A stretch of 32,000 bases of DNA, taken from NCBI GenBank assembly GCA_021650915.1, contig CP091279.1, positions 2,340,001 to 2,372,000 of the forward strand. Reading direction: 5' to 3'. The notes beneath the pieces were generated by a model that was not told the DNA's origin, did not search any database, and saw nothing but the letters and a program-made list of their open reading frames with translations. Origin of the DNA: Candidatus Brocadia sp. GTDB lineage: Bacteria; Planctomycetota; Brocadiia; Brocadiales; Brocadiaceae. A program made the translations under genes and the position numbers. The first letter of the stretch is position 1. Every line of letters starts with the position of its first letter. Below, piece after piece: positions 3,210 to 24,573 of the stretch.

Positions 3210-3255
3210 GTAGGTAGATTAAGGCGTCGGTTTGTACGCCGAATCCACCAATACT
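3210..3255. repeat. REP-like palindromic element, copy A (GGTGGATT...AATCYACC family)
   Basis: The reverse complement AGTATTGGTGGATTCGGCGTACAAACCGACGCCTTAATCTACCTAC matches 19345-19391 with 4 mismatches. Nested stems GGTGGATT/AATCTACC and GGCGT/ACGCC. Lies between the convergent ends of the phosphoesterase gene and moaC. Confidence 0.75.
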
Positions 3256-8176: not shown

Positions 8177-8327
8177 GTAACACTTTAGTTTTTTGAAAAA
8201 TTACAATAATAACGATATTACCGCATGGTGTAGGGGCGAAGCATTTGCCATAAATTGGTATAAATGTATTCATACCCCAAGCTGGCAAATGCTTCGCCCC
8301 TACTTTTTCAAAAAACTAAAGTGTTAC
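8177..8327. mobile_element. 151-bp MITE (24-bp perfect TIRs, 8-bp target-site duplication)
   Basis: TIR GTAACACTTTAGTTTTTTGAAAAA at 8177-8200 is the exact reverse complement of 8304-8327. Direct repeat AAAAAATG lies immediately outside both ends (8169-8176, 8328-8335). Internal second perfect 21-bp inverted repeat GTAGGGGCGAAGCATTTGCCA (8230-8250 / 8283-8303). No ORF. Confidence 0.8.
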
Positions 8328-12994: not shown

Positions 12995-13014
12995 ATATTA
13001 ATCGTCTCATAATA
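12995..13014. repeat. 20-bp repeat ATATTAATCGTCTCATAATA, left copy
   Basis: Perfect inverted match to 19240-19259. Lies where the AT-rich cytochrome upstream region gives way to intron-derived sequence. Confidence 0.85.
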
Positions 13015-13029
13015 GAACACACATTAAGC

Positions 13030-14723
13030 TGTCCGTTTAGTGCTTCAATATTGGAGGATGGCGTGCCTTGAAGTATGGGATACCTAAGTGGTTGAAAATA
13101 TCACCTCTGCGAGCCGAAATCCAAGCTGTATGAGATGGTGACGGACGACTGGCTCTCACAGGTCTGTCTTTGAAGTCGTCAGCAGTGCTCATAATAGTTT
13201 CTGGTGTGTACCAGGAATGAAGGGGCATAACCGTAGTAGAGTTGATGAAACGTGGTAGATTGAATACGTTCCATGAGAAAAGAGACTCTTTGCATGGGCA
13301 AGTAGTAGCAAGAGCCTCTCTTGTTTTGCCTCTGTCAGGAGGAATCTCGACTCAGGAAACACGATTGACAAGTCTATTATCCGGAATCAATCAAAAGGAA
13401 CATATCGGGAGATGCTTAAGTATCATTCTTTAAGAGACAAGGTATTCAGTCTGAGAAACCTTTATGCGGCTTTTGGGCACGTAAAGAAGAATAAAGGCAA
13501 GGCTGGTCTCGACAGGGTAAGTATTAAGCAGTTTGAAAGTGACCTTGAGAATAATCTACAAGCTATTCACAAGGAACTGAAAACCGCCATATACAACCCT
13601 GCGCCCGTCTTAAGGGTCTACATTCCCAAAGGCAGGCATGACAAGAGACCTCTTGGCATTCCCATTGTCAAGGACAGGGTAGTACAGCAGGCGTTCAGAC
13701 AAATCATAGAGCCAATATTCGAGAAAGAATTCTCAGATAACAGCTTTGGATTTCGTCCAAACAGATGCTGTCATGATGCTATCAAACGGATTGAACAGTA
13801 TAAGCAGCAAGGGTATCGGAACATTTTGGACGCCGATATAAAGGCGTTCTATGATACCATACCTCACAAGCTTATCATGAACTCCTTGCGTGAGAAAATT
13901 GCTGACGGATGGGTTTTGAACAGTATCGAGAACATGCTCAAGGCAGGGGTCATGGAGAACGGCATCGTGCATGAGACAAATCAAGGCACTCCGCAAGGAG
14001 GCGTCATATCTCCCTTGCTTGCAAACCTTATCGGTGACATCATCGACAAGGAGCTTGAAAAGGCAGGATATAAATTTGTCCGCTATGCCGATGACTTCGT
14101 TGTCATGACTAAAACAAAAGAAGAACTCCCTGCCGCCCTTCAGTACGTCAAAGAAATCATCGAAGGGAAACTTGAAATGAAGCTGAGCGAGGATAAAACC
14201 AGGCTCACCAACTTCAAACGAGGCTTCCGGTTTCTCGGATATAATTTCATGGGCAAGAACAAGGGTATAAGCATGAAATCCCTGGACAAACTCAAGGACG
14301 CCGTCAGAGACATCACCAAACGCACACAAGGCGTCAACCTGCAAGCCGTCATTGATACATTAAATCCTGCCATAAGGGGACATGTCAACTATTTTCGGCT
14401 GGGCAATGTACAAACGGTATATCGCTCGTCAGACTGCTGGGTACGCATGAGACTGAGAAGTTTCAAGTTTTCGAGAAAATGGAAAACTGACAACAAACGT
14501 TTCCCGGTACACCGATTCTTTAAGATGGGGTTACTCTCATTTGAAAGAGAATTTCTTAAGGCACGTGCAAAGGCATGATAGTTTACTTTTCTCTGCTCCA
14601 GAGCAACACTATGGGGTCGCTAACTACGGGAAAGCCGTATGGTTTAAAAGGATACTTTGTCACGTTGTCCAAAGTATCTGGCGACGATTGGGGGTTGGAG
14701 GCGATTCGCCTCCTTCCTACCAG
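13030..14723 (+). mobile_element. group II intron remnant encoding an RT/maturase (5' boundary uncertain; domain V collapsed; domain VI cut by an IS)
   Basis: RT ORF at 13412-14578. Downstream, AAGCCGTATGGTTT (14632-14645) looks like the two ends of a domain V with the middle missing. A DVI-like hairpin GGAGGCG-ATT-CGCCTCC (14697-14713) followed by TTCCTACCAG resembles the DVI at 24424-24459. Only ~380 nt of non-AT-rich sequence precede the ORF. Confidence 0.65.
13412..14578 (+). CDS. group II intron reverse transcriptase/maturase (no endonuclease domain)
   Basis: 388-aa ORF. RT blocks RPLGIPIVKDRVVQQA, FGFRPNRCCHDA, GTPQGGVISPLLANL, VRYADDFVVM (YADD), then X/maturase-like LNPAIRGHVNYFRLGN. 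Confidence 0.9.
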   Translation: MLKYHSLRDKVFSLRNLYAAFGHVKKNKGKAGLDRVSIKQFESDLENNLQAIHKELKTAIYNPAPVLRVYIPKGRHDKRPLGIPIVKDRVVQQAFRQIIEPIFEKEFSDNSFGFRPNRCCHDAIKRIEQYKQQGYRNILDADIKAFYDTIPHKLIMNSLREKIADGWVLNSIENMLKAGVMENGIVHETNQGTPQGGVISPLLANLIGDIIDKELEKAGYKFVRYADDFVVMTKTKEELPAALQYVKEIIEGKLEMKLSEDKTRLTNFKRGFRFLGYNFMGKNKGISMKSLDKLKDAVRDITKRTQGVNLQAVIDTLNPAIRGHVNYFRLGNVQTVYRSSDCWVRMRLRSFKFSRKWKTDNKRFPVHRFFKMGLLSFEREFLKARAKA

Positions 14724-14802: not shown

Positions 14803-16801
14803 CTACAGGCCGACCTGTCCGGATGCGTAAACCTTGGGCGGCGGTTGTTCAGGAAGCGTTAATCCCAACTGCGCCAAAAGGAGTAAAACGTCCTTCTCCG
14901 GCTGGGTATAACGGCTCATGACAATATGACGGCCATCCGTGGTCGGTAAATGAACGTCTATCATTTGAATGCCCGACAGTTTTTCCAAAATCGCTTCAGA
15001 CGTCAGCCCTCCGGCCCTCCCCGCGCAAGATTGCGCAGTGTCGTGTGGAGACAAAAAGCCAAAAAGGAAACAAAGATATGGGCTTCAATTCTCCGTTCCA
15101 ATTGATGCCATAGGGGGCGGACGGAAAGAGACCCCTTCAAGTCCTTAAATGCCTGTTCTATCCGCGTCAACAGCAAATAATTTTCCCAGACGGTTTCTGG
15201 CGCGGCGGCCTGCATGTTGGAACGAAGCAAATAACGCCCCTCGCGCCGATACGCCTGCCTCAGGCGTTCCCGATCCAAACTGAACCGGAACGTATTCTCA
15301 TTGACCGGTTCCTGCGGTTTGGGAATGGAGATCGTGACCAGTCTGTAGTCTCGTCCGGCTTCTTTCTTTAACGCGCCAATATGCATGAGCAGGTCATCGC
15401 GCGTGAGGGCTTTTCGATTGCGAAGTTCGCGCAGGCCCATCCACAAACGTCTGAGTCTGCGCCTACGCATGGCACGCTCCTTAGACACCCGGTCATGGCT
15501 TTCCACGTAAACGTAAAACTCCGATTCCTGCCGAAGAACTTTCACGCGGACACTCTCCCTCGCCTGCATCCAGGTTTGTTCGAGCAACGGTTTTTCTACT
15601 CGCGTCAAATGTCCCTTCGGAGTCCCAACCAAATAATCAATCCCGCGCTCACGCATCTTTTCCAACATCTCCTCCGTTGGAATACCGCGATCCATAAGCC
15701 AGGTGCGCCGGAATTTCCCATACTGCTTTTCAATCCGATCCAGAAATTCCTCCAGCGTTGCGGTGTCTCTGGTATTGCCCGGATACACTTCGTAGGCCAC
15801 GGGAAATCCTTCCGGCGTTAACACCAATGCCACTACCACCTGCACGCAATCCGAACGTTTGTCCCGGCTATATCCAAACCGTTTCTTACTCCCCGATCCA
15901 GTCGGAGGTGGGTCACTTTCAAAATACGTACTCGTCAAATCATACAGCAGCACATCGTACTTCGCCCCAAAGAGTTTTCCCCACTTCTCCTTTAAATAGG
16001 CAAACAGCTCGTCCCGATGCTCAAGCAACAAATCCAAACAACGATACGCCTTGTCCTTCTGCGCCAGGGAATAATCCTCTCCCAGCAGATCGCCTGTTGC
16101 GCTCCGCACGTACCACTCACGGTGAAAACGAAATTCGCTTCCCGGATCGATCAACCGGTAACAGACAAGCGCCTTCAGTATATTCAACCAGCTTGTCCCC
16201 TTCCGGCTTGACGGCAGACGCATCCTCCAGAATGTGTCCAGTTCCAGCATATTCCATAGCGCGGCACAGCCGCAACCAAATTTCCTTTATGAAAGCGGGG
16301 AGATTGCTTCGGAAAAGGCCCTCGCAATGACACCGGCCATGCACTTTGATGGTACACTGCATGTTGTCATTGCGAGTGAAGCGAAGCAATCTTTCACTCA
16401 TAAAAAACGGTACCTCCTGAAAGGGGTTTGTGAAAAAACTCACAGAAAAAAGAAGTTTTTATACAGTAATACTATACATACAATCCCAACCAGCTTGCTC
16501 CCCACTCCCGCGGATGGCGCAGCTCTATTTTGTCCAACCGCACCCGAACGGTCTCACCATCCGGTATCGGCATGGCTTCCCGGTCATCCGGAAACAATGC
16601 CAGTTGTCTTGGCCTGGGTTCTTTACCCGACACCGCCTCTATCGTCCGAACCCACCCAGCCCGTTGATTGTCATTGAGTTCTCCCAAAGAGAGAACCTGC
16701 CGCTGCACCACCCTTCTTCCGCTGACCCGGCGGTTCTCTACCATGCTCCAATAACGGTGGGTTTTTCCATCTTTCGTTCGTGTCTTTTCCCGGAGAAGCA
16801 T
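14803..16801 (-). pseudogene. IS1634-like DDE transposase, disrupted (insert plus frameshift)
   Basis: Three ORF pieces. 16472-16852 is the N-terminus, likely true start MLLREKTRTKDGKTHRYWSMVENRR at 16801. 15003-16250 is the DDE core. 14803-15054 is the C-terminus ...LTSEAILEKLSGIQMIDVHLPTTDGR.... The first two are separated by a ~218-bp insert; the last two overlap in different frames around a G-rich run near 15003-15054. Confidence 0.8.
16260..16477. repeat. ~218-bp non-coding insert inside the transposase gene, carrying an inverted pair of GATTGCTTCG...TCGCAATGACA modules (MITE-like)
   Basis: Transposase reading ...WLGLY (ends 16478) resumes as LWNMLELDTFW (from 16259); the two join into the pattern WLxLxLW. 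Inside the insert, GATTGCTTCGGAAAAGGCCCTCGCAATGACA (16302-16332) faces TGTCATTGCGAGTGAAGCGAAGCAATC (16365-16391). Boundaries inferred from the protein, +/- a few nt. Confidence 0.55.
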
Positions 16802-16961
16802 GCGAGCATTTTCGCACTTCCCCCTGCATGCGTCAAGAGGGTAGGTCGGCACTACAAGCCGTTTTGAAAATTCACCCCTTGAATATCACGGGTTTCCTGG
16901 CGACTCTTGCCCAAAAATAAACTTTTTTGGGCGCGAATTGCGAAAGTCGGGCTAAACCAGG

Positions 16962-17360
16962 GTGAGTATTACGAAAGAGAATTACCTTTTTATGAATTAT
17001 ACCTATCAAAACCCGGAAGATAATCGCGGAAATGACCTGCCGTTTGTTGCAAGACACTACGGCAACTTTGGAGTGAACGCGCGGCCCTGCAAATATATCA
17101 ACGCCAACCTGAGCGCCTTTTTCAGCGGAAATCGGTCCAGGGACGATGACGATCCTGATGAAGAGAGGGACGACTTGTCATCGTATGCCTTGTTAAATCT
17201 CTCTCTCATCGCCAAGGAATTCTTTAAGAGCATGGAGGTGCAGGGAACGGTATTCAACCTGCTCGACAAAGACTATAGCGACCCCGGTCCTCCCGAAGTG
17301 TCCGACGACCTGCCCAGGCCCGGAAGGACATTTTTTGTTGGACTGAGCTACCAGTTTTAG
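16962..17360 (+). pseudogene. 3' fragment of a TonB-dependent receptor / outer-membrane beta-barrel gene
   Basis: Encodes only ~130 aa: ...NYLFMNYTYQNPEDNRGNDLPFVARHYGNFGVN...NLLDKDYSDP...PRPGRTFFVGLSYQF, with terminal aromatic F typical of OMP C-termini. No plug or barrel N-terminal part upstream. Confidence 0.65.
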
Positions 17361-17415
17361 TACCAAAGGAGAAACCCACACTCTCTGAGTGTGGGTTTCT
17401 CCTTTGGTACTAAAA
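17355..17415. other. 27-bp perfect stem-loop overlapping the stop codon of the receptor fragment
   Basis: TTTTAGTACCAAAGGAGAAACCCACAC (17355-17381), loop TCTCTGA, GTGTGGGTTTCTCCTTTGGTACTAAAA (17389-17415). No U-tract after the stem, so not a canonical intrinsic terminator. Confidence 0.7.
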
Positions 17416-17450
17416 TCGATAGAATTGTGCTGAAATAGTGAATATATTTC

Positions 17451-19169
17451 GTAACTATTCAGCGTAATATCGCCCCCTATCGTTACGAGCTGGCAAAATC
17501 AGGCAATTTGCCGCGAAATACCATCCGTAATGCCTGACTTAAATTTACCCCTTGTTTTCGACAAGTCGAGAGATAACTACGGATGAGGCAGAAGATCTTC
17601 GCTCCGTCCAGAGAACGAAAACAGCCCGATATCTTCTGCTGAACCTTCGTCATCCTGATATCGTTTTCGGCCAGGTTATTCGTGAAGGGGACGTTTTTAT
17701 TGTCCATAAATCTGAGCACATCACCCTCATACTCCCGTAATCGTTCCAGGAGATTCCGTGCTTTTGTCCTTTTTACCCGCCCTCTTTTCCCCTTACGGTT
17801 CGTTTCATCAGGGGGCGGGCTTTCAGCTTCTGCGTTTTGCAATATCCCCCGGTACCTTTGCCGGTATTTCTCAGACTCGCCGTTTTCCAACAAACCCCCC
17901 GCATCCTTTACCGCACGGTTTATCTCTTCGAGCAGGGCTTTCATCTCTTTCGCCCACGGTTGCTTCTTATCCTCTTCCCACACCCCCTCCAATTCCCTCA
18001 GGTGGTGTGCATTACAGAGCGCATGTGTACAGCGGGTGTAGGTGTAATACGCCTTCAAATGGTCGTGACAAAGAATCCCCCGAAACTGGGGCAGTATCCC
18101 GATACTATCCATCGCTTCCGTCCCACGTCTTTCGTGAGGGAAAAAGTGTGTCCACAAACTATTGGATGCACTATGCAGCCAATACCTGTCTCCGTTCTTG
18201 TTGATGCTCGTTTCATCTGCCTGCAATACCTCTGATTTGACAAGTTCTTCCTTGGTTTTCCCCTCGAAGGCTTCCAGAGATTCGTAGGCATCCTTGTTAA
18301 AGTTGTAAAGAGAGCCTTCGCTCAGCGGTATCCCCATCTGCTCCTCAAAATACTCCTGGATCCTCTTATAGGGTATCAATTGATACTGTGACATATATAC
18401 TGCGTGCGCTTTCAAATCCGGCCCATACTGCACTGCCTTTGTCACCCCTTCCGGAAATGACGCTACAAACCTACTTCCCTCCGCATCCTCAACTATCTCT
18501 GCCCGATACTCCGTTACCACCCTTGAAATCTTCATATCAAACACCTGACGCGACTCATAACCGATCAACCTGTATTTGCCGCTCGGATACTTCCTCCGGT
18601 CTACTTTTATTACTTCCACCTTATCAGGATTGGCTACCTTTTTCAGCGTTACTCCATCATGACCCTCTTGCCCACCTGCCTTCCTCTCTCCTTTCGCCCT
18701 GCTCTTTCTCGTGCGATTCGGATCGCTTGCGGGCGGCTTACTACTGTTGCGACTGTTCCGGTTCAGACGTCCTACCAGCAGCGTTATCACTAACACCAAC
18801 AACTCTATCATTGACCTTATGGCAGGTGACAGACCTTTTTCCTCTGAAAGCAGCTTTTCTACTTTCCGCAGCGTTGCATCTATATCTATATTCTCTATCG
18901 TCAATGGATGGCACCGGTATTAATAGCCTGAAATCATCTCCTGCGGCTATTATACCACAGGCTTTTTCACCCATTTTTTTCACCCTCTACCGCCCTACAA
19001 AACTCTGTAATTCTCTGGCCGAACATACCCCACACCTCTCTTTGCAAAAACCTCCGATGGGCTACAGTGGCATCCTCCACAGCCATTTATTCTACCAACC
19101 AATTCTACTGCCCCCTTTTCTCATGTTGACTGTCAACTAAATTCTAAAATATTTTCGCTGAATAGTTAC
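17451..19169 (-). mobile_element. IS66-family insertion sequence (single-ORF, ISBst12-like layout)
   Basis: 14-bp terminal inverted repeats GTAACTATTCAGCG (17451-17464) / CGCTGAATAGTTAC (19156-19169) bracket the transposase ORF. No matching 8-bp direct repeat at the flanks (TATATTTC versus ACAAATAC). Confidence 0.75.
17483..18904 (-). CDS. IS66-family transposase
   Basis: 473-aa intact ORF. NSSKPPASDP, QADETSINKNGDRYWLH, CNAHHLRELEG, VPFTNNLAENDIRMTKVQQKISGCFRSLDGAKIFCLIRSYLSTCRKQG are characteristic IS66 TnpC blocks. Confidence 0.9.
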   Translation of the reverse strand: MTIENIDIDATLRKVEKLLSEEKGLSPAIRSMIELLVLVITLLVGRLNRNSRNSSKPPASDPNRTRKSRAKGERKAGGQEGHDGVTLKKVANPDKVEVIKVDRRKYPSGKYRLIGYESRQVFDMKISRVVTEYRAEIVEDAEGSRFVASFPEGVTKAVQYGPDLKAHAVYMSQYQLIPYKRIQEYFEEQMGIPLSEGSLYNFNKDAYESLEAFEGKTKEELVKSEVLQADETSINKNGDRYWLHSASNSLWTHFFPHERRGTEAMDSIGILPQFRGILCHDHLKAYYTYTRCTHALCNAHHLRELEGVWEEDKKQPWAKEMKALLEEINRAVKDAGGLLENGESEKYRQRYRGILQNAEAESPPPDETNRKGKRGRVKRTKARNLLERLREYEGDVLRFMDNKNVPFTNNLAENDIRMTKVQQKISGCFRSLDGAKIFCLIRSYLSTCRKQGVNLSQALRMVFRGKLPDFASS

Positions 19170-19239
19170 ACAAATACAGGATAGAGTGCGTGCTTATTTC
19201 AATAATAAAACAACGAGGTATGCTGCAGCATGTTAATAT

Positions 19240-19259
19240 TATTATGAGACGATTAATAT
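19240..19259. repeat. 20-bp repeat TATTATGAGACGATTAATAT, right (inverted) copy
   Basis: Exact reverse complement of 12995-13014. Confidence 0.85.
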
Positions 19260-19344
19260 AGCACTGCAAAACAGCATTTATATGTTTCGTTATTAATATG
19301 TCTCTACACTACTACAAATCACAAATTGTGAGCCTGTGGAGTAT

Positions 19345-19391
19345 AGTATTGGTGGATTCGGCGTAAAAACCAACGCCTTAATCCACCCTAC
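19345..19391. repeat. REP-like palindromic element, copy B
   Basis: AGTATTGGTGGATTCGGCGTAAAAACCAACGCCTTAATCCACCCTAC. Stems GGTGGATT/AATCCACC and GGCGT/ACGCC. Matches the reverse complement of 3210-3255. Confidence 0.75.
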
Positions 19392-19482
19392 TCATAACTA
19401 GTGTCTGAACGAAAACGCACTTTTTGTAAAAGTGCGAGGTCGATTTTCTATTTACCAATAGATAATTTTAAGATTTGAGATT

Positions 19483-21159
19483 AGGGTTTTTGGCAAAAAT
19501 ACTGTTCTTTTACATATTTCCCTTGTTTTCCCCTTTATTTTAGCCTTGTCTGGGCGTACCTGCCTCCCGGCAGACTGTTTTTCTTCGTGTTTTTTGCTTG
19601 CTTAGGCGGCTTTTCGCAACTTTTCGCACTGCTTCCGTGCCTTCTCCTGCAGCACGTTTCCCAGCTTGTGCAAATTCGCAGCTAACACGCCCATTGCACA
19701 ATATCTTTTAAAGGCATGCAGCCCTTTGTCCGGACACCTATCCAAGCCGTGATGCTCCAAACGATTGATATCCGATTCTACCGCCGAGTGCTTGTGCCTT
19801 AGCTTCTTAAATGTCTTACCCGATTCCTCTTCCTGTTCCGCCTTATTCTTCTTGCCCTTCTTGGGAAGGATTACCTCTGGTATATACAAACTCAGCAACT
19901 CTTTATTCTCTTTCTTGTAAAAACCTTTATCAAAACTTATACTCTTTATTGTGCCTTCTCCGTAACGGCTCAACAACCTATCTGCCAATGGAATTACCAA
20001 CGATACATCCGCCTGTTTTTCTCCTACCACATGGTCCACGATGAAACCCCACTGATCGCTTGCTACCAGAATATTATGTCCCAACTCTACCCTTTTGTTT
20101 GACTTGCCTTTGTACAGCCACTCCGTATGCGGCTCAAACAACGAATGAACCTTTTCTGCCGCCGGTATTACCTCATCCCGGATCACCCTTCTCTCCACCA
20201 GGTCTATCTGTTTATTCAACATCCCGTGAAAATACTCCAGTGTCCCTATTTTCCCTGCATGCTTGTCTACCTGGTTCGTCGTTAGCACCTTTTCGTAGAT
20301 GGCTAACAGACTCGCTCCTATCTTTTCACTCAAACCCCTCGATAATTCCAAGTAACTCCTCACATGCTCTTCCTTGTTTTTCCCCCCGCTGCTTGACGCC
20401 TTTGCGCTTATCCTCATCAGCTTTTTTAACTCTCTCCTCCAATATTTGCTCTTGCGCCATCCTTTCCCCGCCAGGATGCCTTCCTCTATTGCATCCTCTA
20501 TCATGTCCAGACTCTTGCGTCCCGCATCCCACAATAAATTCATATCGGTCGGAAAGTGTACATTCGTCTCTAACACATACGTATCCACCTTAATACACAG
20601 TCCTTCGTCCTTTTTTTTAACCAACTGATGCCCCGATGATATCACCACTTCATTTATCTGCCTGAGGGTCTCCTCATCCAACAATCTTATATTGTCCTTG
20701 ATGCTCTGCATCGAAAAAACCTTCGCCTCTCCAAATGCCGTCTCAACCCCCATTATCTGCCTGATAAGTTTGTGATGGTTGGCAAAATCCTCCAACCTGT
20801 CATAATCGGCATCTAACCCTAATCTTACCACCGACAACACCAAAATATGCCATAAATCCATCCCATATCTTCCCGTCTTTTTCTTCCCCTTCGTTACCTT
20901 CGCCTCTAATATCCGGAATACCTCCTCGTTCAACTCCGGTGTAACATAGATATGTTGCAACGCCCTCAGTATCGGTGGTAGCTCATCTCGACTCTTTATT
21001 GGCAGTTTTACCCCTGAAATGGGTATGATGCCAAGCTTCAATTGCTGCTCAAATCTCTTTCTCATCTTCTATCGAATGTCCTTTGGCTAGTGGGTTAATG
21101 AACCGAATATTTGGACTCTTTATACCCAGAATCCCTTCATTTTCGCCATATTTTACCCT
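19483..21159 (-). mobile_element. IS5/IS1182/ISNCY-like insertion sequence (ends approximate)
   Basis: Transposase ORF 19602-21065. Weak subterminal inverted similarity AGGGTTTTTGGCAAAAAT (19483-19500) versus ATTTTCGCCATATTTTACCCT (21139-21159). True termini not established. Confidence 0.4.
19602..21065 (-). CDS. DDE transposase (IS5/IS1182/ISNCY-like; family not resolved by eye)
   Basis: 487-aa intact ORF. N-terminus MRKRFEQQLKLGIIPISGVKLPIKSRDELPPILRALQHIYVTPELNEE. C-terminal LRHKHSAVESDINRLEHHGLDRCPDKGLHAFKRYCAMGVLAANLHKLG resembles the DDE_Tnp_1 C-terminal block. Confidence 0.75.
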   Translation of the reverse strand: MRKRFEQQLKLGIIPISGVKLPIKSRDELPPILRALQHIYVTPELNEEVFRILEAKVTKGKKKTGRYGMDLWHILVLSVVRLGLDADYDRLEDFANHHKLIRQIMGVETAFGEAKVFSMQSIKDNIRLLDEETLRQINEVVISSGHQLVKKKDEGLCIKVDTYVLETNVHFPTDMNLLWDAGRKSLDMIEDAIEEGILAGKGWRKSKYWRRELKKLMRISAKASSSGGKNKEEHVRSYLELSRGLSEKIGASLLAIYEKVLTTNQVDKHAGKIGTLEYFHGMLNKQIDLVERRVIRDEVIPAAEKVHSLFEPHTEWLYKGKSNKRVELGHNILVASDQWGFIVDHVVGEKQADVSLVIPLADRLLSRYGEGTIKSISFDKGFYKKENKELLSLYIPEVILPKKGKKNKAEQEEESGKTFKKLRHKHSAVESDINRLEHHGLDRCPDKGLHAFKRYCAMGVLAANLHKLGNVLQEKARKQCEKLRKAA

Positions 21160-21177
21160 TTTACCCGAAAAAATTCA

Positions 21178-21723
21178 ATGACTTTCATGAACATTTTTCA
21201 CCAGCTTCTCCTTACTTTACAGGGCTCTGGGGGGTTTCCGTTCAAACACTACATAGACTTTTTTTACCAAATGGCCGATGAACTGGACAAAATCTCTCTT
21301 GGTACGACGGGTTGTCACTTCAACCTGTCTACAACCACCATTAGGTTCAACTGCCATGAAAATATTACGGGTGCCGGCACGTTTATACTCGCAGTCCTCT
21401 TTGACAGGATTGCCCGGACTGGCAGGAATTGGGAGGCGCGGTTGTTCCAAAAGCTGCTTACTCTTCTCGTCTACGCAAATCACTGGCTCGTCCTCACAAT
21501 AAGACCTCGTGTAGAGTTCCAGCAAATCATACATCCTTTGGCGGTATTCCTCAGTCAATTTACCAATATACCACATCAATTTCCGCCAAGGCTTACAGTC
21601 GTTTTTTTTAGAAAGAGACGGATACTTTCACGACTAATCTTTCTAAGTTTTAGCTGTTGCCTTGTTGCTTCAGTCAACAAGGCGATTGTCCAGCGCCTGG
21701 CACCCTTCGGTGGTGCACTACAT
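21178..21723 (-). pseudogene. IS630-family transposase, central fragment (3'-truncated; A8 frameshift site)
   Basis: My minus-strand translation: CSAPPKGARRWTIALLTEATRQQLKLRKISRESIRLFLKK, frame change in the A8 run (plus-strand T8 at 21602-21609), then NDCKPWRKLMWYIGKLTEEYRQRMYDLLELY...VICVDEKSKQLL...YEYKRAGTRNIFMAVEPNGG...RRTKRDFVQFI. Homology is lost near 21180-21220, next to the IS5/ISNCY-like element. Confidence 0.75.
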
Positions 21724-23576
21724 CGGATGTTCACCTCAAGGCAAAAAACAAAAAGGCTGCGAAAGCCTTAATTTTACTGGCTTATTTGTTGCCTGGTAAG
21801 TTTTTTTCTTGTGACTACCCGTAGGTTCCGGCTTGGCAATGCCTCCGGCAGCTTTACCTGCAATGCCTCTAACAATTCACGTGATTGTTGCCGTGGATGT
21901 GGTATCTTCTGGCAATGCGCCTTTTGACCCTTCACCTTCACTTCCACGGAACAAATGGTAGTCAATTGTTTGAGTCCTTCCTCTACCGTCAGATCAAAAC
22001 TCTTCCACGCATCACGTAACCTTCGGATTATCAGGTACGCAAGCATTACCACAAACACATGCCCTTTTGTACTCTCTTCTTTCCTCACGTATACAGGACG
22101 AACCTCAAGATTCACCGTCTTGCACCCCCGAAACACCTTCTCCACCTCTGACAAGTCCTTGTACCGGTCGTGCACCAGATCGGTATCCGCATCGCCCTCC
22201 TTCAGATCGGTCTTGATTACATAACATCCATCAAGATACGATTCTTCCTTGAATGCTTCTTCATTGTTCTCAATCTTCAGCGCCCCGGCCTCGTCTTTTA
22301 TCTGCACCCACCCCTCAAGCTTCAGCTTCCCGAGCTTCTCCTTCGCTGCCTCCAGCGCCTTCGATATCGATGCCTTCGGATGCTCTTTGAGATAGCTGTT
22401 CTTCTTATCGATATAGTCTCCCCATATGCTGTAGTTTTGACATGCGAGTCTTCGCCATCTCTTCTGCCCTTATCGGATTGCGTCTCAGAATATACCGAAC
22501 CCCCTCACTCTTTATCTCGCAGAGCTTTTCTTCAAACAACCCTAACTGCAGAATCCCTTGTTTTATCAACGACTCGATCTGCGGCTTGGTTATCGCCGTT
22601 ATGTAATGAAATCCTTCCGGCAAACATTCGATTTGCATCGTCTTGATCATCCCCCGATCACCTACCATGGTCACCCCGGTGCACCCAAACCGTTCTGCCG
22701 TCTTCTTTACCTGAGACTCAAAGGTCTTTGGGTCCTGGGTATTGCCCCGAAATACCTCCGTGGACACCGGCTCCCCAAATTCATCACACAGCATACCAAT
22801 CACGATCTGCTTCTTCCCCTTCTTGCCGTCACGATTATACCCGTACTCACCAAAATGATTTAACTCCCCCTCCACATAACTGCTCGTCACGTCATACAGA
22901 AACAGCTTCGGCTTCTTGCCTGCCCGTCTTGCATCAAACAACGTTCGCTCTATCTTTGCCTGATGCTCCGATAACCACGATAAATTATCGTAGAGATCAT
23001 TCTCGTCGAACCCCCGCTTCATACCCAGCACATCACCCGCCGCATGCACCTGCGCCAGCCTTACCGCCGAGAGTCTTGACCCCTGATTTATCACCCGCGA
23101 CATTACCTGCCACAGCGCCAGTCTCCCCTGAAAATCCTTCCCCAACGCCTCCTCTATCCCTAATTCCTTTGCCACCTGGTACACACTCCAGATCGCCCCC
23201 ACGGACATCCCCTCCTGGAGTTCCACCGATCCTGACAATGCCCCCAATGCAGTGAGATCCTCTTTATGGCTGAGGGCAAGCTTTATCGCTTCTATCTCCC
23301 GCGATGTGCAGTTCGACAGATTTGCAATGGTACGCTTCCTGACCTTTCCGCCTTCCCGATACGATTCCCGTAAAAGGATGGAACGGTAGATTTTTTTGCC
23401 GGATTTTGATTTGTTTTCCACAATATGCATATCCACTATGATACACTATATTATTCAATATTTTAAGCATATTGTTGAATAATAACAATATATTAGTGAC
23501 TACATAATTGCAGACAAAACAATGCTAACTGTCAATATATTAAATACTTATGTGTTTTGCTTGGGGTGAACATCCG
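21724..23576 (-). mobile_element. IS1634-family insertion sequence #2 (1853 bp, complete ends)
   Basis: TIRs CGGATGTTCACCTCAAGGCAAAA (21724-) and its inverted partner ...TTTTGCTTGGGGTGAACATCCG (-23576), 2 mismatches over ~22 bp. 6-bp direct repeat CTACAT at 21718-21723 and 23577-23582. Removing the element plus one repeat restores the IS630 reading frame. Confidence 0.85.
21774..23436 (-). pseudogene. IS1634-family transposase with one frameshift
   Basis: ORF 22405-23436 (ENKSKSGKKIYRSILLRESYREGGKVRKRTIANL... DDE core) and ORF 21774-22307. The second frame is actually open from ~22460 (..SIWGDYIDKKNSYLKEHPKASISKALEAAKEKLGKLKLEGWVQIKDE..), so a single 1-nt indel near 22425-22440 separates them. 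Confidence 0.8.
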
Positions 23577-23921
23577 CTACATGCCAAAGCTACGACTTCG
23601 GCTTGTTGGTTGGTTCCGTATTTTACCGGTTGGCCGGGTCTGACAACATCGTGAAGTGCATAATCCAAGCCCTTCTCAAGATATGCAGAGCGTGTCCGCC
23701 AAATGGCAGTGCGGCCAACACCCAGAACAGACAGAATATGTTTTTCAGGCACATTTTGGTCTAAAGCCGATAATATATGCGCACGATTGACTTCTCTTGT
23801 CATGTGCTGCCCCTTGGAGCGAAATGACTTCAAGTTTGCTCGTTCTTCCTCGGTAAGTTGAATTTTTGCTTGTCTCATGAAGCACAGCATAATGTATTGT
23901 AATTAATTTGTCAACACACTA
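23577..23921 (-). pseudogene. IS630-family transposase, N-terminal HTH fragment plus element end
   Basis: MRQAKIQLTEEERANLKSFRSKGQHMTREVNRAHILSALDQNVPEKHILSVLGVGRTAIWRTRSAYLEKGLDYALHDVVRPGQPVKYGTNQQAEVVALAC, then interrupted at 23577. Upstream on the minus strand: TTGACA (23909-23914) - 17 nt - TATGCT (23886-23891), promoter-like. Element end inferred near the TA at 23920-23921. Confidence 0.75.
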
Positions 23922-24459
23922 GAGAGTGGTGAAGCCCAGACCTTTTTGGAAAAAGAAGGAAGTCTATCAAGCTGAGGGGTAGCGTGATAAAGCGATGATA
24001 GGGAGCAATGGGTGGTTGGAGACGGAATGGCAGGAAGACAAGGTGCATGAATCAGGGATACCTGACAGAGGGAGTGACAAAGTCAGGAGTCAGAGACTTC
24101 ATAAGAGCGAAGAAGCATCGTAATGGATGTGGAGCGAAGGGAGGCAGGAAGGTGGAGGTATGAAGTGGGTAAGCTGGGAAGACAAACCAAGGTGAGTGGC
24201 AGAAATGCCTAAACAAGTTGGAGAAATCCGTAGAAACGGATTTGAACTTGGCTTATAGCGGACTGCCTGTTGACGGCTTGCATAAGGTGAATGATGAGAA
24301 TCGATGTCATCATTATGAGGTATGAATTGTTCACGTATCCGCAATTTATATTTTCAACGGTCAATCCCGAAGGGGTAACCACTGACTGGAGAGCCGTATG
24401 CGGGAGATCCGCCTGTATGGTTCGGAGGGAGGGGAGGCGAAAGCCTTCCCTACCCCTAT
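23922..24459 (+). mobile_element. ORF-less group II intron (or 3' ~540 nt of one; 5' end abuts the IS630 remnant)
   Basis: Canonical domain V and VI at the 3' end (see next feature). Purine-rich structured-looking upstream sequence without any RT-like ORF in six frames. Short hairpin AATGATGA/TCATCATT (24290-24314) where domain IV would be. No clear GUGYG at the left edge. Confidence 0.7.
24391..24459 (+). ncRNA. group II intron domains V and VI
   Basis: DV is GAGCCGTATGCGGGAGATCCGCCTGTATGGTTC (24391-24423): AGC triad, 9-bp lower helix with G-U pairs, 2-nt CU bulge on the 3' strand, 4-bp upper helix. DVI is GGAGGGAGGGGAGGC-GAAA-GCCTTCCCTACCCCTAT: 9-bp helix, GAAA loop, unpaired A at 24452 seven nt before the terminal ...CTAT (24459). 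Confidence 0.85.
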
Positions 24460-24573
24460 CAACCGCAACCTTGAAATTTTTGTACCTTAAAGATACCAAT
24501 ATGCCTTTTTATCTGAAATGAGTTTCTTACTACTACTCGTTTCTCAATGAACCTAATCCTGAGGTACCTTTTC

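Follow-up and report, generated by a model that had tools for sequence, protein, structure and literature searches.

Positions 23922–24459 of a 32,000-nt stretch of Candidatus Brocadia DNA (hereafter the window) look like the 3′ portion of a group II intron without an ORF, raising the question of whether this is a complete, compact intron or what is left of a larger one. An earlier note on this DNA had leaned towards a compact intron that would need a maturase in trans, and had pointed to an RT gene 9.7 kb away. The comparisons presented here indicate that the segment, which extends from 23919 to 24459, is very probably what remains of a non-autonomous ORF-less group II intron, dead and truncated on its 5′ side at an IS630 element. 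The earlier observation was largely right as a whole; what the relatives of this intron contradict is its completeness and the partner proposed for it.

The 541-nt fragment aligns collinearly with ORF-less relatives and corresponds to approximately position 178 to the end of a group II intron of ~718 nt. RF00029, the Rfam model of domains V and VI, matches 24389–24459 on the + strand with 51.5 bits (E = 1.6e-7; gathering score 40). This is the sole gathering-level Rfam hit in the whole window, in which a permissive Rfam scan gave no further credible RNA match; a minus-strand match to Plastid-ycf3 (27.5 bits; gathering score 55) was taken as chance. In the predicted fold, domain V has a 9-bp helix, a CU bulge of 2 nt on the 3′ side, a further 4 bp and a 5-nt terminal loop; its first bases, GAGCC, supply the AGC triad. 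Domain VI is capped by a GAAA loop, and 7 nt separate its bulged A, at 24452, from the intron end, UAU at 24459, an AY-type end. The two domains together fold at −41.4 kcal/mol, compared with −24.5 kcal/mol for shuffled sequences (z −5.4). The covariance-model match above the gathering score and the fold thus bear out the earlier description of a group II intron segment with intact domains V and VI, down to the AGC triad, 2-nt bulge and terminal loop of the one and the GAAA loop and unpaired A seven nucleotides from the CTAT end of the other.

The 3′ boundary, 24459/24460, has independent support. Copies at other loci match through ...CCCCTATC / CCCCTAT+C and diverge right after. All five Logan contigs of the focal locus carry the neighbouring 464-aa gene and end at window position 24431, which we read as the break that a k=31 assembler would make at a repeat with its end near 24460. 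The locus is 99.98% identical to contig LAQJ01000243 of GCA_000987375.1, which we take to be an assembly of Ca. Brocadia fulgida.

Upstream of domain V, none of the Rfam D1–D4 models reaches threshold on the window fragment. The 5′ region of L049, a full-length relative from Ca. Brocadia pituitae, matches RF02001 with 32.6 bits (gathering score 32); most of this region is missing from the window. Across 22 family members, 89 columns reach at least 90% conservation, and the part retained in the window agrees with all 89. The region of domains II and III is collinear with relatives and matches all conserved columns; the domain labels given here are those suggested by the conserved GAGUCAGAG...AUAGUAGCG...GUAA...GGAGCGAAGGGA blocks. 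Purine richness is noted over 23922–24200.

Features of the window discussed in the text, in window coordinates; A2 is the alignment of the intron family.
Feature	Position	Strand	Basis and remarks
Second group II intron, of a different lineage	13064–14717	+	Intact 388-aa RT/maturase at 13412–14578; TIGR04416, 397 bits
IS1634-family element inside IS630	21724–23576	−	22-nt inverted repeats at 21724–21745 and 23555–23576; matches to NF033559 and NF033545
IS630-family element, 5′ part	23577–23918	−	NF033545; abuts and truncates the intron
EBS1 (UAGAG)	23920–23924	+	A2 covariation; implies a lost 5′ exon ending in CUCUA; IS630 junction at the TA of CTAG
Domain I, 3′ part	23925–24060	+	Invariant A2 columns; holds the family-invariant GCUGAGGGGUAGCGUGAUAAAGCG at 23971–23994; putative boundary
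Domain II hairpin; J2/3 and domain III	24061–24087; ~24088–24145	+	Conserved blocks, A2 columns ~435–500; putative labels
Domain IV relic after loss of the RT ORF	24146–24390 (~245 nt)	+	Comparison with the IEPs of L007 and L049; fold
Domain V	24391–24423	+	RF00029 and fold; identical to domain V of the full-length relative L007
Domain VI	24424–24459	+	RF00029 and fold; candidate branch-point A at 24452; end ...CUAU at 24459

The other end of the fragment is different. Homology to relatives begins only at 23919, within the EBS1 loop, where the IS630 end abuts a CTAG (23919–23922): the window reads ...GTCAACACAC|TAGAGAG at this junction and relatives read ...GAGCCTGC|TAGGGAA. The GUGYG of a 5′ splice site is absent; relatives carry GUGCG 177 nt 5′ of the position equal to 23919. 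The closest of them, L010 and L046, extend these 177 nt further, up to GUGCGCC, and the lost piece would consist of GUGCGCC and about 170 nt more, ending in ...GAGCCUGC. It comprises the 5′ splice site and most of domain I, of which only EBS1 and the 3′ part are left. The assignment of EBS1 comes from covariation: in 18 of 22 loci, A2 columns 201–205 are perfectly complementary to the final five nucleotides of the 5′ exon, compared with a mean of 1.9 and a maximum of 7 loci in 2000 shuffled pairings. With the full-length relative L007 (blastn and nhmmer) and the 86%-identical L010 as probes, the missing 5′ piece was not found in the 32-kb window; it could lie elsewhere in the genome. The suspicion of a truncated 5′ edge, voiced in the earlier note because the segment touches the IS630 end and lacks a clear GUGYG, is therefore substantiated, and the idea of a complete compact intron fails on the ground that the note itself had named, that other copies reach further 5′. 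With its 5′ splice site, 5′ exon and most of domain I gone, the remnant would be unable to splice in cis or to move. The intactness of all 89 conserved positions suggests that the truncation is probably recent, and would also fit continued constraint.

The element that abuts the intron is itself interrupted. The HTH-containing N terminus of the IS630 transposase runs from an ATG at 23890 down to 23540 on the − strand, the rest of the transposase lies at 21217–21579, and the IS630 end holds a promoter-like TTGACA-17-TATGCT on the − strand (23914 down to 23886). IS630 elements insert at TA, often within CTAG, and this preference, together with a junction that falls at CTAG, points to insertion of IS630 into the CTAG of the EBS1 loop. 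A search for the other IS630 end as an inverted copy of the 23880–23919 terminus gave no convincing match, and the expected TA target duplication was likewise not found; an IS630 insertion followed by loss is what this one junction suggests.

The loss of the ORF is a separate matter from the loss of the 5′ end. Between a conserved domain I motif and domain V there are 418 nt in the window copy. Across 42 related loci this distance is bimodal: 1,543–1,599 nt in loci that carry an RT ORF in between, intact (440–485 aa) in most and disrupted in a few, versus 427–466 nt in six loci, all without an ORF. Complete ORF-less relatives measure 713–773 nt. The ORF-less state is thus real and arose by deletion. 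The focal fragment has no intact RT ORF, in keeping with the earlier note, but relics of one are recognisable. An N-terminal relic runs from an ATG at 24160 to ~24295 and reads MKWVSWEDKPR*, then ...AEMPKQVGEIR... and ...LPVDGLHKVN in shifted frames; a C-terminal relic at ~24296–24385, near domain V, reads ...GQSRRGNH*. Their counterparts in the B. pituitae IEP (L049) are ...PKQDGEV..., ERMLTALEKGVKG|GKWF... and ...CQSRRGNH*. Together they represent some 45 codons from the N-terminal side of the RT gene and some 30 from its C-terminal side. Domain IV, which had been taken for a 25-nt hairpin, is in fact the whole ~245-nt relic, with a predicted fold of −70.1 kcal/mol (z −2.6); the hairpin, at 24290–24314, marks the ORF deletion junction.

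This junction, hairpin included, is the same in the window copy and in L010/L046, which argues for one shared deletion event. Because L010 and L046 keep a complete 5′ end, the ORF would have been lost before, and independently of, the 5′ truncation. Elsewhere in the family, the derivation is clearest for three ORF-less copies (L014, L029 and L036). They match the full-length L024 at 95% identity, apart from 1,116 nt removed cleanly and in frame by a single deletion. When the shared 5′ RNA is placed in a neighbour-joining tree, every ORF-less copy stands beside a different full-length relative, so that ORF loss looks recurrent, or polyphyletic. Both deletions that could be traced (L014 versus L024; window and L046 versus L049) kept ~48 codons before the RT0 motif GKWFSL and the last 27–35 codons of the gene. 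These terminal codons may have been retained for a second role, as domain IV RNA that includes the maturase-binding region.

The family to which these copies belong was assembled in several ways. An exact scan for domain V returned three loci from metagenomes and no match among species-representative genomes; a degenerate 24-nt domain I motif, common to the window and L007, recovered the 42 loci from species-representative genomes. Their hosts are mainly Acidobacteriota and Planctomycetota, Ca. Brocadia pituitae among them, with single hits in other phyla. Full-length members are ~1,840 nt long and encode an RT/maturase of 445–485 aa, leaving ~495 nt of non-ORF RNA. L007 is one of them: blocks matching window 23971–24230 and 24377–24462 flank a 445-aa RT/maturase (TIGR04416, 410 bits). 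The nearest full-length copy is that of Ca. Brocadia pituitae (L049), 84–86% identical. IEPs of its type are common in metagenome assemblies, where many 449-aa homologues occur, and a truncated 344-aa homologue (P0167), labelled Ca. Brocadia fulgida in its source, is 94% identical to the L049 IEP and is the one lead to a maturase of the focal lineage in this genome. No intron of the focal lineage that encodes an IEP is present in the 32-kb window.

Among the ORF-less forms, those complete with both splice sites are L014, L029, L036, L019, L045 and L050, at 719–773 nt. The protein database, queried with spurious ORFs of the fragment, yielded P0001, a read-through 'protein' of an ORF-less copy. 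Its contig, L010, is identical to L046 in a Planctomycetota MAG, is 86% identical to the window over 23919–24346 and has the same domain IV layout. Among complete ORF-less relatives, L046 (VGXV01000027.1) is the closest. It has lost 15 nt between two GGAGA repeats and, with them, the 5′ strand of its domain V; RF00029 finds no match in it, so that L046 appears to be dead as well.

Two further loci hold 3′ ends of the same intron. L009 retains just the final 197 nt, which share 98.5% identity with the window; ahead of this fragment lie tandem CCAAGTTGTGC repeats (L009 positions 1195–1250) and a 337-aa gene that resembles a REP-associated tyrosine transposase with a DnaA-like C terminus. At L008 (WBZY01006657.1), the same intron 3′ end is followed by a 26-nt flank like window 24460–24485 (3 mismatches). 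Beyond this flank comes a radical-SAM gene resembling queE, where the window has its 464-aa gene; the locus could reflect a rearrangement or else a second insertion at a similar target.

The targets of the family are distinctive. In 35 of 35 distinct 5′ exons, a GC-rich hairpin ends 0–5 nt (mode 3) before the insertion site, and the mean folding energy of these exons is −17.4 kcal/mol versus −8.5 kcal/mol in control segments. This evidence is the family's, the window copy having lost its own 5′ exon. The EBS1–IBS1 pairing is short in the lineage, 5 nt, and covaries; a scan for EBS2 by exon–intron complementarity found no consistent column, a weak negative. The IEPs of relatives match models of the RT and maturase (X) domains only: TIGR04416 for L007, and Pfam RVT_1 and GIIM for the L049 homologues. 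Against solved structures, the IEP scores higher with 7UIM (224 bits) and 6AR1, the GsI-IIC RT (207 bits), than with 6ME0 (152 bits) and LtrA (142 bits), in a set of hits among which no class D, E or F references were identified. We take 7UIM to be the IEP of a IIC intron. The RT- and X-only IEP, the ~495 nt of non-ORF RNA, the hairpin targets and the 5-nt EBS1 are reminiscent of class C introns such as GsI-IIC (PDB 6AR1). The focal domain V has AGC, where the IIC intron of O. iheyensis has CGC, and the target hairpins look REP-like in some hosts rather than terminator-like. Insertion just after DNA hairpins is a described behaviour of class C introns (PMC4424553). Judged by these sequence features, the lineage appears IIC-like and hairpin-directed, and may belong to class C.

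Several copies suggest that the ORF-less forms have moved. L014, L029 and L036, in one Acidobacteriaceae MAG (MFD06714.bin.3.179), are identical over 719 nt and sit in different flanks at hairpin sites with matching IBS1 sequences, which fits mobilization by a maturase supplied in trans. The Brocadia-type ORF-less form likewise has different 3′ flanks in the window, L009 and L046. A trans-acting maturase for the ORF-less forms of the family is thus plausible, and trans mobilization of ORF-less introns has been shown experimentally for TeI3 of T. elongatus (PMC2882425). Such a maturase cannot rescue the truncated window copy. Of the proposal that the segment is a compact intron in need of a trans maturase, what survives is the absence of an ORF and the fit of the family's copies to trans mobilization; what does not is the window copy as an example, at 541 nt and truncated versus 713–773 nt for complete forms.

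The window does encode an intact RT, as had been stated, in a second group II intron (table). This 388-aa RT is, at 45% identity to the focal lineage's IEP, an unsuitable candidate for the partner maturase that the earlier note proposed to try: the intron that it serves has different RNA at both its 5′ and 3′ ends. Its own lineage starts with GUGUGCCUUGAAG 678 nt before the ATG and ends in ...CCUACCAGCUA. Relatives of the RT are 70–98% identical, and eight contigs encode one identical RT in at least six different flank pairs, which indicates recent mobility of the lineage. Neither the window RT nor its 98%-identical cluster representative matched any contig in an exact look-up, and a scan of viral contigs with the window RT returned only distant RTs, of 25–42% identity.

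The 3′ region of this second intron is unusual. RF00029 finds no match there, either in the window copy or in the relatives L053, L054, L055, L057 and L065. Across the lineage (window 14600–14717; L053–L057 and L063–L072), the lower helix has its 3′ strand interrupted by a hairpin of ~40 nt that is conserved and covaries, which produces a three-way junction. Its parts are a closing helix GUCGCU/GGCGAC, a hairpin AACU-ACGR-GAAAG-YCGU-AU-GGUU, a second hairpin of 7–10 bp and a normal domain VI. The AACU...GGUU hairpin resembles the upper part of a domain V, 2-nt bulge included. With the second hairpin set aside, 10 bp, a bulge, 4 bp and a 5-nt loop would give the canonical outline of domain V, with CGC at the position of the triad. 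In the alignment, 94% of cells are paired and 11 pairs show double changes, a level reached in 0 of 500 shuffles; the structure is kept in all 7 distinct relatives aligned, and the window copy carries a compensatory pair. No description of an insertion in domain V appeared in the literature searched, and literature searches for group II introns in Brocadia gave nothing relevant. This lineage, with its hairpin-interrupted domain V that the Rfam domain V/VI model misses, is the more unusual item in the window.

Compared with full-length relatives, the window copy of this intron has a 323-nt deletion in domain I (junction 13113|13114), and its 5′ end is GCGUG, not GUGUG; the RT ORF is intact. The deletion and the altered 5′ end suggest that the RT's own ribozyme is probably inactive. 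The earlier verdict of a dead ribozyme accordingly holds as regards a defective intron and misses as regards the cause, a broken domain V: the domain V is not broken and is typical of its lineage.

How, then, might the focal fragment have arisen? If it is the relic of an intron already without an ORF, a full-length intron of a lineage present in Brocadia would have lost ~1.1–1.2 kb of its RT/maturase gene when an internal stretch of domain IV was deleted; the base of this domain and the first ~45 and last ~30 codons would have stayed behind. The ~718-nt product may still have spliced and moved with a maturase from a full-length relative, and may have spread in this way to several sites, one copy landing beside the window's 464-aa gene. 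Later, IS630 would have inserted at the CTAG of the EBS1 loop, and IS1634 and ISNCY insertions or rearrangements would have come next; the first 177 nt are now gone. Another course, in which the fragment is a plain 3′ piece of an ORF-containing intron that lost its ORF and its 5′ end in one event, could be imagined in a region that is a nest of insertion sequences; we consider it very improbable, since the ORF deletion is internal, with intron sequence on both sides, and its junction is common to L010/L046, which have a complete 5′ end.

The reading of a complete compact intron of ~540 nt, spliced by a trans maturase that might be the RT at 13412–14578, draws on real features, namely intact domains V and VI, a genuine ORF-less state and an intact RT gene 9.7 kb away. 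It nevertheless carries very little weight with us: GUGYG is absent, homology begins inside the EBS1 loop with 177 nt more on the 5′ side in relatives, complete ORF-less relatives are 713–773 nt and not 541 nt long, and the window RT is just 45% identical to the lineage's IEP and belongs to a different intron RNA. Nor do we give more than slight credence to a split, trans-splicing intron, in which a separately transcribed 5′ piece (GUGCG and ~177 nt) elsewhere in the genome would reassemble with the fragment. The absence of decay at 89 of 89 conserved positions is the only hint in that direction. The 5′ piece is not in the window, the break falls inside the EBS1 loop of domain I, no promoter-like site lies upstream on the + strand, and the fragment, in non-coding DNA beside a convergent gene, has no exon to rescue. 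That the likeness to domains V and VI arose by chance in purine-rich non-coding DNA is next to inconceivable; the purine richness of 23922–24200 is all that speaks for it, against the RF00029 E-value of 1.6e-7 and homologues with RT genes and covarying EBS1–IBS1 pairs.

A dead relic that was already ORF-less has close parallels among described introns. The ORF-less TeI3 introns of T. elongatus arose from one large domain IV deletion that left N- and C-terminal ORF relics; they are mobilized in trans by the IEPs of related introns, and truncated and IS-interrupted copies occur alongside (PMC2882425). The focal lineage resembles them in that its ORF-less copies arose by deletion in domain IV with terminal relics of the ORF. 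It departs from them in an IEP without an En domain, which the TeI4h IEP has (PMC2882425), in its IIC-like hairpin targeting and in an ORF loss that looks polyphyletic rather than, as in T. elongatus, a single event; the window copy, moreover, is itself truncated. Truncation, and a setting of other mobile DNA, are common among bacterial group II intron copies (PMC4424553), and the focal copy is like those reviewed there: a fragment without a 5′ end, in non-coding DNA, within a nest of insertion sequences, with the added feature that it was already ORF-less before truncation. The focal element is in this sense an ordinary kind of bacterial mobile-element relic: one more truncated intron in a part of an anammox (Brocadia) genome that is rich in insertion sequences, with a nearby RT that is not its partner. 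The family is of modest interest, as ORF-less derivatives of 713–773 nt turn up repeatedly in an IIC-like, hairpin-targeting lineage across Acidobacteriota, Planctomycetota and other phyla, and some are multi-copy.

Other repeats and mobile elements are spread through the window. The IS nest occupies 15003–23918 and comprises an IS1634-like transposase (15003–16250), IS66 (17483–18904), ISNCY (19602–21065) and the IS630 element split by IS1634 (21724–23576). Inverted repeats of 43 nt, 93% complementary, lie 16 kb apart at 3213–3255 and 19345–19387, and may delimit related mobile elements or a composite structure. Positions 12995–13014, just upstream of the RT intron, and 19240–19259, just upstream of the ISNCY region, share a perfect inverted match of 20 nt (ATTAATCGTCTCATAATAGA-like). 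Finally, nested palindromes at 8177–8327 consist of 27-nt arms, GTAACACTTTAGTTTTTTGAAAAATTA, around a hairpin with 36-nt arms (8230–8303); in L046 the intron is followed directly on its 3′ side by GTAACACTTTAGTTCTTTGAAAAAT, a close match to this sequence and a hint of a common REP- or MITE-like repeat.
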